Shown piece by piece: positions 9,734 to 59,382 of a DNA stretch of 64,000 bases. Each line of letters starts with the position of its first letter. The first letter of the stretch is position 1. A model generated the notes under the pieces. The model had not been told where the DNA came from, searched no databases, and was given only the letters and a program-made list of their open reading frames with translations. The position numbers and the translations under genes are program-made. The DNA comes from an uncultured Acidobacteriota bacterium. GTDB taxonomy: Bacteria > Acidobacteriota > Blastocatellia > RBC074. Location: the NCBI GenBank assembly GCA_963796275.1, contig CAWCKY010000006.1, forward strand, positions 1,146,981 through 1,210,980, in the 5' to 3' direction.

Positions 9734-11032
<1,299 letters not shown>

Positions 11033-37565: not shown

Positions 37566-39485
37566 CTAGAACGAGAAGATAGTTGCGAATTCCGATCGGA
37601 TATTGTGTGTCGACCGGCTGGGGATGCCACGAAATAGCGGCAACCCGCCGAAGGCCGCCGATGTGCTGTTCGCCGCGCGCGTGCGGTAATAAGATTGCTC
37701 GTAACCGAACGTCAGCCAGTTGTTGAACTTGTAGTAGATGGTCCCCGCCAGCATGTCGCCTTTGGCTCGATTGCCAAATCTGCGAACGTCACGTGCGAAT
37801 GCCTGGTCTATACCATAATGCAGATAGAAGGTCCACCCTGCATTTCGCCCTTCGGGGTTGGCGTTGAAGATGCGCGAGAGCGGGATCCCGAGATTGACGA
37901 ATCCCCCCTGTCCCCGCACCGGTAGTTGCGGGGCGATCGTCGGCACCCCGTCGAGCAGGCCGAACGCCATCATTGACGAGCCGTCAATCGATGGTCCCAT
38001 TGCCACGCTCTCCAACCCAAAAGTATCGGTGAAATTCGAGAAGAACTGATTGGCGAAGTAAAAACGCAAGTCGGCGCCCCGATAATATTTCAATAGCAAT
38101 GTCATGGCGCGCGTCGGCAGTTGCGCCTCGAGCGAATAACCCCAGCGATCGCTCTCCTGCGTCGCACCGTGAGGGAAATCCGCCAGATAGGCCGCAGGCA
38201 CATTTGCCCTGGGGATAATCAGCTTACGTTTGGACCAGACCCAGCTCGCGATAATTTGCGCGGGCACAACACCTCTGGCTTTGTCGAGCTGCCACTGCGT
38301 CACGAAGCGTCCCTGCATTTCCGGTCTGCCGGAATCTGCCCCCTGGCGCTCGCCAAACCCTTCCTGGTCGCCCACATCCCGGGGCAAGTTGCCGAAGGCC
38401 GGCATCACAAGGGCAAACTCGGGCTGGAAGCTCAATCCACTCTGGTTGCCGGGCACCCTGTAGTTGACTCCGAATCGCGCCTGCGGCGCACGTTCATAGA
38501 GGGTGCCATAGCCCAGGCCAAGCCCTGTGATCTCTAAAATATTGGGCAGCGTCGAGGAACCGAACGGCGTCCAGTCCTGTCCGAAGAGCGCGAAGGCGCT
38601 TGTGCTCTCTGATAACAAGCGATCTATCCGGCCATATGCCAGGCGGATAGAAGGCTGACTTGAACGAATGGTCGCAATATTACGGTTGTTCGAGCGCGGG
38701 AAGCTCCCTTCAAAGTCGAACTCGACCCTGCCGGTGAGCGCCATCCTGGGCGATAAGTCCGGCCACTCGAAATTTGCCCCCAACCGCAATGCGCGCGCCT
38801 TTATATGAAACTCAGGCGATGCATCGGGCCCGGTATCGCCCAGAAACCCTGGCAGCGGAAAATCGTTCCCCATCGGTGATGACGTGTTATGCATTATGCT
38901 CGCTCTGATGAAGCCATAGAGTTTCAGCTTTCCACCGGAGCCGAGCTTGAGATCGGGTATCAGGCCATCACGCTTGATCGGGTCGCTCTGCAATACACGA
39001 ATGGGCGCAGCCACTGCGATCACGGGCGCCTGCGTAGCGGCCGGCGCGGGCGTAGCAGGGGCAGAGACCGTGGTAGGCGCTGGCGCAGGCGCTGATGGAT
39101 TGAGCGCCGTTCCGGGCGTTTGCGGGGCCTGCACAATAACCGGCGCCTCCGGCCTCAGAGCTTCAAACTCACCGCGTGTGATGACCCCCTTGTTGAGTAA
39201 TAATTCCGCGAGCCTCTCACGCCGTTCGATGGGCGTGCCGCTGCCGCCTAAGGATATTGCCTCAGCGTTGTTCAATATCCCCTTGCTCACCAGCACGCGA
39301 ACCAATGGATCAACGATCGCCGCATCCGGAGTGGCCTCAGGCCCGTCCGCCGCCTTGGTCGGAACGTTGTTGCCTCCCGGCTTTTCCTTCCGTTCATTTT
39401 CACTGTATTGACCTGAAGCAAAGGTTGCGAGAAAACTTGACAGCACAAGCGCAATAAGCAGTGAAAGAGGTTTCACAGGTTGCAT
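37566..39485 (-). CDS. Putative outer-membrane beta-barrel porin with Ala/Pro-rich low-complexity N-terminal region
   Basis: Signal peptide (MQPVKPLSLLIALVLSSFLATFASGQ). Two short helical repeats (LVSKGILNNAEA / LLNKGVITRGEFEAL) precede an (A/P/T)-rich linker. The C-terminus ends …EFATIFSF (aromatic, OMP-like). The start is chosen at an internal ATG after GGAAGGAGG; the ORF track extends to 39530. Confidence 0.5.
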   Translation of the reverse strand: MQPVKPLSLLIALVLSSFLATFASGQYSENERKEKPGGNNVPTKAADGPEATPDAAIVDPLVRVLVSKGILNNAEAISLGGSGTPIERRERLAELLLNKGVITRGEFEALRPEAPVIVQAPQTPGTALNPSAPAPAPTTVSAPATPAPAATQAPVIAVAAPIRVLQSDPIKRDGLIPDLKLGSGGKLKLYGFIRASIMHNTSSPMGNDFPLPGFLGDTGPDASPEFHIKARALRLGANFEWPDLSPRMALTGRVEFDFEGSFPRSNNRNIATIRSSQPSIRLAYGRIDRLLSESTSAFALFGQDWTPFGSSTLPNILEITGLGLGYGTLYERAPQARFGVNYRVPGNQSGLSFQPEFALVMPAFGNLPRDVGDQEGFGERQGADSGRPEMQGRFVTQWQLDKARGVVPAQIIASWVWSKRKLIIPRANVPAAYLADFPHGATQESDRWGYSLEAQLPTRAMTLLLKYYRGADLRFYFANQFFSNFTDTFGLESVAMGPSIDGSSMMAFGLLDGVPTIAPQLPVRGQGGFVNLGIPLSRIFNANPEGRNAGWTFYLHYGIDQAFARDVRRFGNRAKGDMLAGTIYYKFNNWLTFGYEQSYYRTRAANSTSAAFGGLPLFRGIPSRSTHNIRSEFATIFSF

Positions 39486-39863
39486 AGAGGTGCAATTCCT
39501 CCTTCCATGGTCGATGTAGGGGCGATTCATCGATTAGTTGTAGGTAACAAAATTTTGATGGTACTTCGTGCTGACGTTTATCCTGACAATCCCTGTGCCT
39601 CACTCAATCTACGGGTTGTGAAGCTTGTCACCTTACTGAAAGCAGAAGCTTTATGCATATGAGCGCATTAACCGAGATGTCGTGAGAGTCTCAATCGAAG
39701 GACAGGTGAGATGATTTTGCATTGCTGAATTGGGAAGAAATTTCTCGCTCTGATATGTCAGAGTTTTCAGTGCCGTAGTTTAGATGACGGAATTCGAGAC
39801 AACGAGAAATAAAGATAGTAGAGACAGGATATAGAAATAGGCCAGCTCGGAACAACGATTACG

Positions 39864-47113: not shown

Positions 47114-50088
<2,975 letters not shown>

Positions 50089-57001: not shown

Positions 57002-57442
57002 TTGACGATTGTCGCGCGGCATCTCGTTGAGGGGGCTGGCATCAACACGAGGCCAAAGAAGCATAGGCAGGGACAGATGTTGATGATCTCTAAAAAGCAG
57101 ATGGAAGTTTTGCGACAGGTGGCGCGAGGAGAGTTCATTCGGAGAACGCTCGCAGTTCTCCGTGAAGCGGTTCCCGGCTTCCTTGCTGGAGTGGACGAAG
57201 CGACAGCTCTGAGACGGGTGGAGGATAGTGTCGCCCAAGCGGAAGCTTATGGGTTGTCCACCGAGCGCCAGGTCCGGGATTTCATCGCGATTGAGACGGT
57301 TGCGGGTGAGGATTTCGCCAGCAATCCGCGCTTCGCCGGAGCACGTGGGGCTCTTGCTGATTTCACTGTCTCACCCGCCGATCGTTTGGCGCGCGCACGC
57401 CAGCGTGTCGCCGAAGCCCTGGCGCAAAAGGACAAGGGATGA
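57002..57442 (+). CDS. Hypothetical small helical protein, translationally coupled (ATGA overlap) to the downstream toxin-like gene
   Basis: …MLMISKKQMEVLRQVARGEFIRRTLAVLREAVPGFLAGVDEATALRRVED…. No known domain. The true start may be the internal MLMISKK at about 57077. Confidence 0.4.
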   Translation: MTIVARHLVEGAGINTRPKKHRQGQMLMISKKQMEVLRQVARGEFIRRTLAVLREAVPGFLAGVDEATALRRVEDSVAQAEAYGLSTERQVRDFIAIETVAGEDFASNPRFAGARGALADFTVSPADRLARARQRVAEALAQKDKG

Positions 57443-58891
57443 GCGAAAGTCTTTTCCCAGACCTGGGTGGCGCAGACCGCCCGGCCGATTCCACGGTTAT
57501 ACCGTGCCCAAATACATTAACTAATTGGATCGACCTCGAATACCTCTATGCGGATGGGACAGGCGTCGCCGGGGCCTCTTACATCGTCCATATCCCTAAT
57601 GGCGGACAGGTGGGCGGAAGCGTGCTTGCCCAGGGGACTCTCGACCGCAAAGGCCAGGCGCGCGCTGTCTTACCTGCTGAAATAGAAGGGGTCGCAGTCT
57701 ATTTCCACGATGATCCGGACGGAGCGCCCTATCGTGACGCCGATGCGGATAGCCCGATTCAGGAACCATATCCTGGCTTTTTCAGTCGTATCTGGGATGG
57801 GATAACTGATGGAACGAAATGGGTGGGCGGTGTGTTGGCTGGAGATTTCAAGGAAGATTCCTCAACCGGCCAGATTGTCGCCAACATGATCGTGACGATG
57901 ATTCCGGGCATCGACCAGCTTGGCGATGCCCGCGATATCGTTGCGAATCTCAAAAAGCTGATTTGGGATCGCCGCTGGAACGAAGCGGGGATGTGGCTCA
58001 GCCTCTTGCTATGCCTGATCGGGTTGATCCCCGAGCTCGGCTCTCTGGCTAAAGGAATCATCAAGGTTGCGCTGCGCAATACGTCCAAGCTGGCGGATCT
58101 GCTGGCAGTCTTCAACTTTTTCAAAAAGGGTAATGGAGTTCACTGGTTACGCGAGTTCGCCGAGAAACTGCCGACCGCACACGCGTCGGCCGCGGCAAAC
58201 AAACTCAAAGAACTACTGGACAGAGCCGCGCCCTATCTGCAACAGGCACGGAACCGCTGGTTCACGCCGCGGACGACGATCGACCGTCTCCTGAATAACA
58301 TAGAAGAGGTCAAGCAACTCGTCCCCCAGAAGTTGAAAGAGGCTGCCGAATACGTCGCCGAAAAGATCGAGCAAGCGTTAAATGAAGTGAGGGAGTTGCT
58401 GCCCGGTAGTGCAAAAGAGCGATTACAGTTGCGCCAGGTTAGGGCAGCCCCTCACGAATCAATTCCTGTCCACGGAACGCCAGTATCCTCAACGCGTCCG
58501 AGAATTTTCGATCAATCACGAACAGGGAAACAAACTGGATATGGCCCAGGGATTGGGAGGCGCGCGTTACGAACTTGCCACAGGTCGAAAGATTTCAACG
58601 ACAACGGTGGAGGGGGCCGACCTGGTTGACCCGATAACTGGCCCATTCCAGCTCAAAGGGCCATTAGTCAATAAGAAGACCGGCCAGCCATTAATCATCA
58701 ACGATAGGATGGTCGATGGGCTTGCTCAATCGGTTGGAGATGATTTGCGTTACAATACGTATACGAAAAGCATAGTTGTCGATACCATGGGGATGTCCCC
58801 CGCGCAGCGTGACCGATTGAAACGAGCTATCGATGCAGATCTCGCTGCACGGCCTGTGGCGCAACCCAAACCGATCATTATCCTTGAGTGA
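57439..58891 (+). CDS. Putative polymorphic-toxin protein: N-terminal beta-rich domain + PT-TG (pre-toxin TG) domain + helical linker + C-terminal variable (toxin?) domain; apparent frameshift at about 58410-58520
   Basis: The PT-TG-like block IVTMIPGIDQLGDARDIVANLKKLIWDRRWNEAGMWLSLLLCLIGLIPELGSLAKGIIKVAL is in frame 57439. After about 58440 that frame becomes Arg/Gly-rich nonsense, while the overlapping frame (58409-58891) encodes a protein-like domain (…GGARYELATGRKISTTTVEGADLVDPITGPFQLKGPLVNKKTGQPLII…). Confidence 0.5.
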
Positions 58892-58902
58892 GGTGACAAT
58901 CG

Positions 58903-59319
58903 ATGGGACATTCTTACGTTAAATTCAGCGATCGGGTACAGATGATGAATGATATGGAGATCATTATCGCCGTCCATGTCATCCTCGATGTGACGCGGAA
59001 GACTCCGGACATTCCTGCTCCCCGAGTGACGGAAAACATCAAAATCTTGCTCGATTCCTGGGAGCACCTGATCGATGTCTATGGGCCTGGCATGGTTGGC
59101 TTTAACTTTAGTGAATATATGCAGACGGATGAGGACCGTGACTGTCTGCTAAGATTGATTGACATCTCTCGTCGGAGGTTGCAGCAATTCGGTGAAGTAG
59201 TTCCGGGGGACTACCTGAATAGAGTCGTCGACGCATCGGCGATACTCGAATTCGAGGATCGGCCGATAGCAAAGGTGCTCACCGCATTCGACAAATTCAC
59301 CAAGCTTCTTAGCGGCTGA
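58903..59319 (+). CDS. Hypothetical protein, candidate immunity protein for the upstream toxin-like gene
   Basis: 138-aa ORF starting 12 nt after the toxin-frame stop, with no known domain. A small cytoplasmic-looking protein in the position expected of a cognate immunity gene. Confidence 0.4.
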   Translation: MGHSYVKFSDRVQMMNDMEIIIAVHVILDVTRKTPDIPAPRVTENIKILLDSWEHLIDVYGPGMVGFNFSEYMQTDEDRDCLLRLIDISRRRLQQFGEVVPGDYLNRVVDASAILEFEDRPIAKVLTAFDKFTKLLSG

Positions 59320-59382
59320 AAAGCTATGTGCGGTGGAATCAAATGCCTGGGCAGCTTTCTTGTCGCGACCTACGCGGTTGAA

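Follow-up and report, generated by a model that had tools for sequence, protein, structure and literature searches.

Among the closest described counterparts of the locus analysed here are VgrG cargo effectors that depend on DUF4123 (Tap/TEC) adaptors and are encoded in the order adaptor, effector, immunity protein (Colautti et al. 2024, PMC11582642). DUF4123 adaptors combine a VgrG-binding N-lobe with a variable effector-binding C-lobe (PMC11582642). The locus lies in the window (the whole 64-kb stretch of acidobacterial DNA that was analysed) and shows the same gene order. Relatives of its effector sit after vgrG or DUF4123 genes, and the protein encoded upstream of the effector resembles the region C-terminal to DUF4123. 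In contrast to the DUF4123 systems, this upstream partner has only 121 aa and no VgrG-binding lobe, no vgrG gene is nearby, the effector itself bears a copy of a VgrG C-terminal domain, and its family is not among the five listed (Rhs, Tle, alpha/beta hydrolase, MIX and MATE; PMC11582642).

Two other groups of T6SS effectors invite comparison. In 'evolved' spike effectors (PAAR-toxin, Tox-PAAR-like (DUF4150)-toxin and VgrG-Rhs proteins), the same beta, TG-like and helical modules stand between the spike part and the toxin, as in L018, P0011 and L014. The window protein, unlike these, has no PAAR or VgrG part, which would make it a cargo effector and not a fusion. The WHIX, MIX and FIX markers are conserved N-terminal domains of polymorphic vgrG-linked effectors and probably mediate loading (PMC12135965), a likeness to our protein, which differs from them in length and motif and has no MIX or FIX Pfam match. 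WHIX itself is a bipartite domain of about 470 aa with a WHxxxH motif (PMC12135965). It was rejected as an identity for the window protein, which has no WHxxxH, and no W followed by H, anywhere in its 483 aa; the WHIX domain is also much longer. A limited literature search found no published name for the TG-like N-terminal domain. In our view the locus probably encodes a polymorphic toxin system of the T6SS cargo-effector type, made up of an adaptor-like protein, a modular effector and an immunity protein.

A three-gene cassette with a modular central gene

Three co-directional ORFs were confirmed in the 57002-59319 region, and the same cassette recurs in at least four further contigs. The MAG itself has a paralogue, P0057, on another contig (1.32 Mb). 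The locus is a genuine three-gene polymorphic toxin cassette, encoding a small adaptor-like protein, an effector and an immunity protein (Table 1). The layout agrees largely with the original prediction, made from the sequence without database searches: the ATGA overlap between the upstream and central genes is present at 57439-57442, and the three peptides it quoted were all found in the frames it gave. Two details needed correction. The third gene is preceded by a gap of 11 nt (58892-58902) instead of 12. For the upstream gene, ATG 57077 is the most likely start codon, not TTG 57002, giving a product of 121 aa, since the 24 homologues are all about this long and start with MLxISK. None of the four ORFs had a match above noise in Pfam or NCBIfam, and a scan for promoters and terminators did not rise above background. 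The next gene past the 138-aa ORF is convergent and of the PNPOx/DUF2470 type.

Table 1. Features of the cassette, in positions of the window.
Feature	Position	Strand	Remark
Helical partner, 121 aa (probable adaptor or chaperone)	57077..57442	+	Conserved upstream of the toxin whatever the tip
N-terminal leader, ~25 aa (MSESLFPDLGGADRPADSTVIPCP)	57439..57513	+	Only in members with the 121-aa partner upstream
Beta-sandwich domain, residues ~15-110 (NWIDLEYLYADGTGVAGASY...)	57481..57768	+	Homologous to VgrG C-terminal extension
Hydrophobic helical (TG-like) domain, residues ~120-215	57796..58083	+	Holds most of the invariant family columns
Long-helix region and constant/variable junction (...LQLRQV...GTP)	58084..58482	+	Family conservation ends here
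Single extra G, frame 1 to frame 2	58483..58483	+	Comparison with intact L001/P0001
Toxin tip, 135 aa and stop codon, frame 2; predicted PD-(D/E)XK-fold nuclease	58484..58891	+	
138-aa cognate immunity protein (inferred)	58903..59319	+	Homologues directly after the same tip

The central gene, whose product has 483 aa once the frame is repaired, is a polymorphic toxin: a constant region of about 340 aa carries exchangeable C-terminal tips. Residues 1 to ~340 are common to 14 homologues bearing different tips, and at least seven unrelated tips occur among the homologues, including Tox-REase-5 (P0006) and WHH plus Colicin-DNase (P0011). In the family alignment, conservation stops after a K-x-x-x-RQ(V) stretch, where the unrelated tips begin. 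The downstream gene changes with the tip and encodes proteins of 138, 248 or 223 aa or a SUKH/SMI1_KNR4 protein, which bears out the predicted toxin-immunity module. Exchangeable tips, a downstream immunity gene that varies with them and a tip found in several secretion types are among the features by which polymorphic toxin systems are recognised (PMC3482391), and these three are seen here. A classical intracellular toxin-antitoxin pair was ruled out by the 340-aa modular carrier and by the fact that CdiA and Rhs proteins carry the tip too.

Within the constant region, the beta domain was modelled with six strands (pLDDT 57-74) and helices were placed across residues 215-318. Foldseek searches of the N-terminal model (pLDDT 57.8, low confidence) against the PDB gave nothing significant and only weak transthyretin matches; 'transthyretin-like' is no more than a hint for the beta fold, as the model is too weak to name it. 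The hydrophobic domain has the motif GDF-x-Q-x-IPxxDQxxDxRD ... W...IGLIPxLGSxxKG, with invariant columns at G135, D136, F137, Q145, I155, P156, D159, Q160, D163, D166, W186, I194, G195, P198, G201 and K205.

The PT-TG domain owes its name to a conserved TG dipeptide and belongs to an LXG/WXG context. The original prediction took the hydrophobic domain for PT-TG (PF14449), in a polymorphic toxin with no delivery route assigned and with a novel tip; toxins of this kind are described mostly among LXG/T7SS or Sec-dependent ones. Parts of that view fit what we see: the toxin-immunity architecture is real, the hydrophobic helices punctuated by proline and glycine superficially resemble a pre-toxin helical module, each being a helical module ahead of a variable tip in a polymorphic toxin, and no secretion system is visible in the window. 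The PT-TG assignment itself is not supported at the level of sequence. PF14449 does not appear among the Pfam matches of the window protein at E≤1, nor in any of 13 family members (the window protein and 12 homologues) even at E≤10. The only TG site of the domain, residues 143-144, is variable (TG, TA, AG, VA, TS, IA or YG), so that no TG dipeptide is conserved. In addition, the relatives of the domain are overwhelmingly vgrG-linked or fused to PAAR or VgrG, associating the family with T6SS spike genes, and the tip has a known predicted fold. A PT-TG toxin thus appears very improbable.

The toxin tip and the gene that follows it

Several CdiA-CT toxins share the PD-(D/E)XK fold. Those of Burkholderia pseudomallei strains E479 (5J4A) and 1026b (4G6V) are Mg-dependent tRNases, and those of Escherichia coli EC869/TA271 (4G6U) and Yersinia pseudotuberculosis YPIII (4ZQU) are Zn-DNases; the active site of CdiA-CT YPIII consists of E177, D198, S209 and K211 (PMC9086364). 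The window tip is predicted to adopt this fold. In the tip family alignment, the E...D...(D/E)xK arrangement is conserved at E30 (116/124), D46 (124/125) and K58 (123/125). Position 56 is usually S or Q, not D or E (S in 85, D in 22, Q in 12 and E in 3 sequences), and S at this position matches the SxK of CdiA-CT YPIII (PMC9086364). Differences from the CdiA-CT toxins are substantial: the window tip shares 11-15% sequence identity with them and has no sequence-level match to any PDB chain, its immunity protein is unrelated to theirs by sequence, and it is borne on a 480-aa carrier of T6SS type, not on a T5SS filament. The tip has no match to a Pfam, NCBIfam or Tox-REase model. A sequence-profile search and a Foldseek search against the PDB gave nothing significant. 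From its predicted fold and motif, we suggest that the tip may act as a nuclease.

Relatives of the tip number 230 at the 50%-cluster level. The tip also ends a CdiA protein (P0094; ESPR+TPS+Fil_haemagg), several Rhs proteins and TadE-like proteins. Only 2 of the 139 tip-bearing proteins checked are TadE-like carriers, so the tip's main context is not Tad delivery. The tip had been described as novel, and the tip and the 138-aa ORF as lacking obvious homologues. These descriptions hold for curated models, none of which covers the tip, and neither protein matches Pfam or NCBIfam. They do not hold more widely, given the known predicted fold, the wide occurrence of the tip, which CdiA and Rhs proteins also carry, and at least four homologues of the 138-aa ORF.

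The downstream gene provides evidence of a different kind. Homologues of the 138-aa protein (52-88% identity) stand directly after every copy of the tip for which downstream DNA is available, namely in L001, in L002 (two tandem copies) and in L007, where the carrier is TadE-like; no homologue follows any other tip in 90 loci. Among the tip-bearing proteins with such a gene after them is P0013, a TadE-like fusion, and P0041 is a deletion hybrid of the N-terminal part of the tip and the C-terminal part of the immunity protein. Since the gene follows the same tip whatever the N-terminus, even the quite different TadE-like one, the 138-aa product fits the role of cognate immunity protein that had been proposed for it, and this pairing suggests that it would neutralise the tip. 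Searches of Pfam, NCBIfam and PDB sequences gave no match for the protein. The original prediction also raised the possibility of orphan tip or immunity cassettes downstream; no second copy of either was found in the window.

The constant modules, the upstream partner and the T6SS spike

As noted in the original prediction, no T6SS, T7SS or Rhs machinery is visible nearby: Pfam searches of 20 large ORFs found no such genes in the 64-kb window, and tblastn with VgrG and PAAR queries found no match there. T6SS delivery in this genome would therefore have to be read from relatives. A scan of GTDB species genomes recovered 140 relatives. In about 12 loci the beta domain forms the C-terminus of VgrG and the TG-like domain opens the next gene; one example (L029) is a VgrG of 925 aa with Phage_GPD, Phage_base_V, T6SS_Vgr and DUF2345 that ends in a beta-domain homologue. 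In most of 79 loci, tblastn placed vgrG directly upstream, and the TG-like domain lay 13-61 aa from the start of a protein of ~400-560 aa directly after it. The modules also occur fused to spike proteins, as PAAR-beta-TG (L018), Tox-PAAR-like-beta-TG (P0011, in a cluster that also holds DUF2169 and a Tle1-like gene) and VgrG-beta-TG-DUF6531-RHS (L014). DUF4123 adaptor genes adjoin the toxin in L016, L019 and L021.

Homologues of the 121-aa partner, at 47-80% identity, directly precede the toxin gene and overlap it by 4 nt, no matter which tip it encodes. This tip-independent protein, to which the original prediction gave no function, is most likely an adaptor or chaperone. Pfam and NCBIfam gave no match for it, DUF4123, DUF1795 and DUF2169 included, and a PDB sequence-profile search with its alignment gave nothing significant. 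Profile-profile comparison by hhalign related the partner to a 110-aa protein encoded behind DUF4123 within a vgrG cluster (probability 89%, E 2e-6) and to the post-DUF4123 part of the long adaptors upstream of toxin relatives (probability 63.5%, E 7e-5). L092 encodes, in this order, VgrG, DUF4123, a pair of small helical proteins that includes a partner homologue, and a 507-aa protein. A metagenome scan for partner homologues yielded one locus. These profile scores are moderate (63-89% probability), and on their basis the partner may act as an adaptor. Taken together, the homologies of the constant modules and of the upstream protein point to loading onto a T6SS spike. The delivery route, which had been called unknown, thus has a probable direction, although use of a T6SS by this genome remains a matter of inference.

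Some observations speak against the T6SS reading. Neither PAAR nor VgrG is fused to the window protein, the partner lacks the VgrG-binding DUF4123 domain, and the source is acidobacterial, as an ADOP permease also suggests, whereas nearly all T6SS-linked relatives are from Proteobacteria. In addition, no T6SS gene was found in the flanks of the partner-type loci L001-L004, L090 and L091 (~0.4-10 kb per side, limited by contig ends). The lack of DUF4123 and of T6SS genes near the partner-type loci could also be read to mean that leader and partner are a self-contained export signal and chaperone pair for another machine (a contractile injection system, a Tad-like apparatus or lysis and release), the beta and TG-like modules being kept for entry into the target cell only. 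Such a pair would explain why the two travel together onto another toxin: in L090 and L091 the leader heads an otherwise unrelated 217-aa protein, with a partner homologue before it and Imm42 after it. It would also suit the fusion of the same tip to a TadE-like pseudopilin in a Tad operon from similar metagenomes. What makes this route decidedly unlikely in our view is that the partner is homologous to proteins that, in a vgrG cluster, are encoded after DUF4123 and before the effector, and that one gammaproteobacterial MAG, HOU_bin.0101, combines a partner-type cassette (L004/L010) with a paralogue beside vgrG and PAAR (L013). Moreover, orphan effector cassettes far from the T6SS core genes are common. 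A T6SS has also been reported in Acidobacteria (Table 1, PMC3482391).

A more speculative extension of the T6SS reading takes the 121-aa protein and the 25-aa leader as a portable, undescribed recognition pair. The partner would then be a 'split' Tap adaptor cut down to its effector-binding module, which recruits unrelated toxins (the nuclease effector, and the 217-aa toxin with Imm42 of L090) to the spike in Acidobacteria-like soil bacteria. We think this unlikely as it stands. In a bolder variant, the pair could recruit toxins to some non-T6SS machine, given that a TadE-like minor pilin carries this tip as well.

The frameshift at the tip junction

The central gene is frameshifted, as had been proposed: a frame-1 ORF (57439..58629) is followed by a frame-2 ORF (58409..58891), with the tip in the other frame. 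The cause is an extra G exactly at the junction of the constant region and the tip. The intact homologue P0001/L001, 87% identical, reads ...ACGCCA-TATCC... where the window reads ...ACGCCAGTATCC..., and gene callers divide the window gene into products of 396 and 94 aa. Programmed frameshifting was considered and rejected, the homologues being in frame and the site (ACG CCA G TAT) having no slippery sequence. In this assembly, the 1-nt insertion uncouples the tip from its delivery region. It is either a recent inactivation of this copy or a sequencing error.

If the frameshift is true, the locus may be a decaying remnant, with a dead effector and an immunity gene kept under selection against neighbours firing the same toxin; an internally initiated, harmless tip fragment could possibly be kept too. 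The frameshift is, after all, present in the deposited assembly and splits the called gene, and L088, an independent Logan contig from the same run, has the extra G as its final base and so terminates exactly at 58483. Behind a second partner paralogue from this sample (L089) lies a leader whose frame is interrupted by stop codons, and orphan immunity genes are well known. The condition of the tip speaks against decay: its ORF extends over 135 codons without an internal stop, retains every motif residue and has a dN/dS of 0.25 (against L001). The Logan contig break itself suggests inconsistent reads at the site. Indel errors do occur in these data, as a comparison of the two assemblies of this run over 4.8 kb shows two 1-nt homopolymer indels. 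We therefore hold the remnant reading to be possible but somewhat doubtful.

Under the favoured reading of a T6SS cargo-effector cassette, the 121-aa protein would bind the N-terminus of the effector and keep it loadable. The complex would then be placed on a VgrG/PAAR spike whose genes lie elsewhere in the genome, and shot into an adjacent cell, where the hydrophobic and helical region may help the tip to reach the cytoplasm. There the tip would cut nucleic acid, either DNA or tRNA. In the producer and its kin, the 138-aa protein would bind and block the tip.

Our analysis replaces a PT-TG annotation guess and gives, by homology, a probable delivery route, the T6SS spike. It delineates four uncurated families, each of which could yield a profile model: a widespread N-terminal domain of vgrG-linked effectors, found from Acinetobacter and Stenotrophomonas to Roseobacter; a beta domain common to VgrG C-termini and effector N-termini, a 'Rosetta-stone' hint that these parts touch in loading; a PD-(D/E)XK toxin tip with 230 clusters on CdiA, Rhs, T6SS cargo and TadE-like carriers; and the immunity family of that tip. 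The general understanding of polymorphic toxins is unchanged by these results. For the poorly studied soil Acidobacteria, they provide a concrete candidate for interbacterial antagonism.

Layout of the cassette and the toxin frameshift

Three co-directional genes, as the original prediction described, were present in the ORF listing (Table). The first, encoding the partner, almost certainly begins at ATG 57077, since its homologues are ~121 aa long with the N-terminus MLxISK. The TGA of the partner gene overlaps the ATG of the toxin gene in the predicted ATGA, the C-terminal part of the toxin is indeed carried in another frame, and all of the peptides quoted in that prediction were found in the sequence. 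The small gap ahead of the third, putative immunity gene was also there, at 11 nt instead of the 12 nt given, and a Shine-Dalgarno-like GAGGTG spans the toxin stop codon in front of it. On the whole, the observations made beforehand were largely right and their interpretation half right.

Features of the cassette and of the rest of the window (window coordinates)
Feature	Position	Strand	Remark
Gene 1, partner	57002..57442 (mechanical ORF)	+	likely ATG start 57077; 24 homologues
Gene 1/gene 2 overlap	57439-57442	+	TGA/ATG
Gene 2, toxin, frame 1	stop at 58629	+	
Gene 2, toxin, remainder	58409..58891	+	frame-2 ORF
Gene 3, putative immunity	58903..59319	+	138 aa
Constant part and partner compared with L001	57077-58482	+	
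Tip compared with L001	58484-58888	+	
ORF without Pfam/NCBIfam match	37566-39530	-	654 aa
ORF with CHAT (caspase-like) domain	48055-48996	-	313 aa
Homopolymer differences, Logan/window	56992; 59319-59321		GG vs GGG, AA vs AAA (1-nt lengths)
Substitutions, Logan/window	61402; 61412; 62029		

The search with the fused toxin retrieved P0001, an intact protein of 483 aa with 87% identity over its full length (P-numbers denote homologous proteins and L-numbers fetched DNA loci, L001 being the DNA of P0001). L001 reads ...GGAACGCCA-TATCCTCAACGC... against ...GGAACGCCAGTATCCTCAACGC... in the window, and from this comparison the predicted frameshift is a single extra G at 58483. Programmed frameshifting was considered and is not indicated, because no slippery sequence marks the site and every homologue reads in frame. 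Position 58483 is also the junction between constant region and tip, since at this codon boundary begins the stretch (...G.P.P.RVRE...) that the window toxin has in common with P0012 and P0013, whose N-terminus differs completely.

We take the frameshift to be either an artefact or an event of very recent date. The tip ORF in frame 2 is free of stops over 135 codons, shows a dN/dS of 0.25 against L001 and retains all of the conserved motif residues. Of two short Logan contigs from ERR11592904, the run behind the window, one (L088) terminates exactly at the G of 58483 and the other (L087) begins at 58842, the tip region not being assembled together with its flanks. Against the window, these contigs show three substitutions and two 1-nt homopolymer indels over 4.8 kb, so indel noise exists in these data, and such indel-level uncertainty may touch other gene calls in the window. 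Relative to L001, synonymous divergence (dS) was 0.15 in the tip, roughly a third of the values for the constant region (0.44) and the partner gene (0.50), a suggestive pattern, from a small sample, of the kind expected if the tip, with its immunity gene, had recently been exchanged by recombination.

The window otherwise carries housekeeping and regulatory genes (NusA, IF-2, transaldolase, kinases, sigma-54 regulators, a CarboxypepD_reg outer-membrane barrel, a glycosyltransferase) and, as had been noted, no T6SS, T7SS or Rhs genes within its 64 kb. Next to the cassette's neighbour, on its upstream side, lies a gene for an ADOP-family duplicated permease (TIGR03434, E 8e-292), and the closest loci, L001 and L090, have neighbours of the same kind. 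These surroundings suggest that the DNA probably comes from a member of the Acidobacteriota. Elsewhere, directly downstream of a cassette with the partner in a gammaproteobacterial MAG (L004:10656-17089), NACHT, SIR2_2 and DUF87 ATPase genes form a neighbourhood resembling a defence island.

The predicted nuclease tip and its putative immunity gene

The AlphaFold2 model of the tip, built on a 24-sequence alignment, was confident (pLDDT 94.5, pTM 0.87). Its structural matches were the CdiA-CT of B. pseudomallei E479 (5J4A, score 10.1, 105/116 residues aligned), CdiA-CT 1026b (4G6V, 7.8), the restriction endonuclease AspBHI (4OC8, 6.5), EC869 CdiA-CT (4G6U, 6.3) and Y. pseudotuberculosis CdiA-CT (4ZQU, 6.1), and the tip is thus modelled as a PD-(D/E)XK nuclease sharing its fold with CdiA-CT toxins; its substrate would be DNA or tRNA. 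Across 125 representatives, conservation was highest at D46 and G59 (124 each), K58 and D100 (123 each) and P60 (122), followed by E30 (116/124) and D49 (104), with position 56 occupied by S (85), D (22), Q (12) or E (3); the window tip has all of the conserved residues, with Q at position 56. The claim of a novel tip therefore holds in that curated libraries have no model for it; the predicted fold is not new.

An exhaustive HMM search placed 230 representative clusters in the tip family, the domain lying nearly always at the extreme C-terminus of proteins of ~130 to 4915 aa. Since its carriers include a CdiA with ESPR, TPS and haemagglutinin repeats (P0094), Rhs proteins (P0103, P0121, P0155, P0183, and Rhs C-terminal fragments), a protein judged WXG-like by eye (P0176) and TadE-like proteins (2 of the 139 tip-bearing proteins checked), the tip is a promiscuous predicted nuclease domain of polymorphic toxins that curated libraries miss. 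In the two TadE-like cases, P0012 (L006) and P0013 (L007), a Gly-rich linker joins the tip to a TadE-like pseudopilin N-terminus, and the gene sits behind a TadG-like (PF13400) gene and ahead of an immunity homologue. As a carrier of a polymorphic toxin, a minor pilin would be unusual.

In the family alignment, homologues are alike over residues 1 to ~340 and wholly divergent after a K-x-x-x-RQ(V) stretch. Pfam assigned Tox-REase-5 to the tip of P0006 and WHH plus Colicin-DNase to that of P0011; at least four unannotated tips occur in P0005, P0008, P0009, P0010 and P0014. The gene 3' of the toxin varies with the tip, encoding 138 aa after the window-type tip (L001, L002), 248 aa after the Tox-REase-5 tip (L003), 223 aa in L004 and a SUKH/SMI1_KNR4 immunity protein after the WHH tip (L005). 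By tblastn over L001-L086, the loci fetched by that point, and the window, matches to the 138-aa protein lay only 3' of a window-type tip. The strongest point for a tip-immunity pairing is P0013 (L007:634-3399), in a Tad operon, where a window-type tip (58% identity) is followed by a 137-aa protein 52% identical to the window ORF. P0041 (124 aa, on a 377-kb JGI contig) joins the first third of the tip (~50 residues, to GADLMDGADL) to the last third of an immunity homologue (~70 C-terminal residues). This natural hybrid, in which a deletion has apparently taken out the catalytic core of the toxin, again places the tip and immunity genes side by side. With exchangeable tips and an immunity gene that tracks them, the proposed toxin-immunity module is a genuine cassette of polymorphic toxin, immunity protein and helper.

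In L002, two tandem immunity paralogues (L002:11463-12316), 78% and 60% identical to the window copy, follow one toxin gene, with an Imm42 gene and a PemK fragment farther upstream on that contig.

T6SS links, leader and partner

Upstream of the tip, the toxin comprises a leader, a beta domain, a TG-like GDF...IPxxDQ domain and a helical region. The TG-like domain had been taken for PT-TG; PF14449 was missing from the Pfam matches of the window protein at E<=1 and gave no match in 13 family members at E<=10, and the family alignment has no TG among its invariant residues, so this assignment is not supported. No Pfam or NCBIfam model covers either the beta or the GDF...IPxxDQ domain.

Scanning one genome for each GTDB species yielded 140 relatives, mostly in Proteobacteria (Roseobacter, Jannaschia, Acinetobacter, Stenotrophomonas, Luteimonas, Massilia, Vibrio, Pseudomonas). 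In about a dozen loci (L029, L033, L036, L039-L041, L045, L048-L051, L058, around locus position 10000), the beta domain (query ~7-110) is the C-terminal end of a ~850-1020-aa protein, in L029 a canonical VgrG (Phage_GPD, Phage_base_V, T6SS_Vgr, DUF2345), and query ~113 onward matches the next gene, starting with the GDF...IPxxDQ domain. Because the beta domain ends VgrG in some genomes and starts the effector in others, this split and fused, 'Rosetta-stone' arrangement suggests that it lies at the VgrG-effector interface. In most loci the motif GDF-x-Q-x-IPxxDQxxDxRD stands 13-61 residues from the start of a ~400-560-aa protein, and vgrG ends just ahead of that gene (tblastn with VgrG). Fusions comprised PAAR-beta-TG-helical-tip (L018), Tox-PAAR-like-beta-TG-WHH (P0011, clustered with DUF2169, another PAAR-like gene and a Tle1-like gene) and a 2139-aa VgrG-beta-TG-helical-DUF6531-RHS (L014); in L016, L019 and L021 the toxin gene adjoins one for a DUF4123 protein of 453-622 aa. 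Such vgrG adjacency, VgrG/PAAR fusions and DUF4123 neighbours are standard genomic signatures of T6SS spike-loaded effectors, and the carrier modules are thus T6SS-associated in these relatives.

Among the ~500-aa effectors with an N-terminal GDF...IPxxDQ domain after vgrG, those of Acinetobacter (L083-L086), Stenotrophomonas (L072, L046, L057) and Pseudomonas (L052) have a common unannotated C-terminal domain (ICWM..EF...WR..FAVW..WN.NGEY) without Pfam or NCBIfam match.

The partner gene sits immediately 5' of toxin genes carrying three different tips, which it overlaps by 4 nt (L001-L004; 47-75% identity), and its product is read here as a constant helper and not as an immunity protein. Across the family alignment, conservation of the leader is confined to members having the partner. 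In L090:4492-6122 and L091:4423-6053, a partner homologue (151 aa) precedes a 217-aa protein and an Imm42 (PF15593) gene; since that protein has only its first ~25 residues (SEGIFPDLGGDDRSADSTVIPCP) in common with the window toxin, the rest being unrelated, leader and partner move together between toxins. A second partner paralogue, 66% identical, occurs in the window's sample (Logan locus L089, from the window's run; P0057, on a 1.32-Mb NCBI contig) and is followed by a leader (MSESLFPDMGGSDLPTDS) running into stop codons; it marks either a second, degraded cassette within the window's own genome or a cassette from another genome in the sample.

The sole match of the metagenome scan for partner homologues (L092:6931-11880) has five tightly packed genes, for a VgrG (Phage_GPD, Phage_base_V, Gp5_trimer_C), a short, DUF4123-only protein of 179 aa (E 2e-32), two small helical proteins of 110 and 118 aa, the latter being the partner homologue (32% identity, E 1e-6), and an unannotated 507-aa protein. 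This locus looks like a Tap adaptor divided into separate lobes. The profile of 23 partner sequences matched the 110-aa protein (89% probability, E 2e-6) and the post-DUF4123 region of the long adaptors in L016, L019 and L021 (63.5%, E 7e-5), with which the partner has the motif A-x-x-YG(L/F)(S/T)...F...G..F..DPRF in common. DUF4123 adaptors combine a conserved VgrG-binding N-lobe with a variable effector-binding C-lobe (Colautti et al., PMC11582642); unlike them, the partner has no VgrG-binding lobe. From this two-lobe architecture and the moderate profile scores, we infer that the partner resembles an effector-binding module standing on its own.

Acidobacteria are among the taxa for which a T6SS is reported (PMC3482391, Table 1). 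The gammaproteobacterial MAG HOU_bin.0101 contains a partner-type cassette (L004/L010) together with a paralogue beside vgrG and PAAR (L013), so cassettes with the partner do occur in genomes with vgrG and PAAR. No spike gene was found in the fetched flanks of the six partner-type loci (L001-L004, L090, L091). The leader and the small DUF4123-less partner, with no spike gene nearby, are the least conventional element, which gives some scope to another delivery route or to a loading variant as yet undescribed. The cassette as a whole is assembled from several uncurated families and belongs to a kind of system already known.
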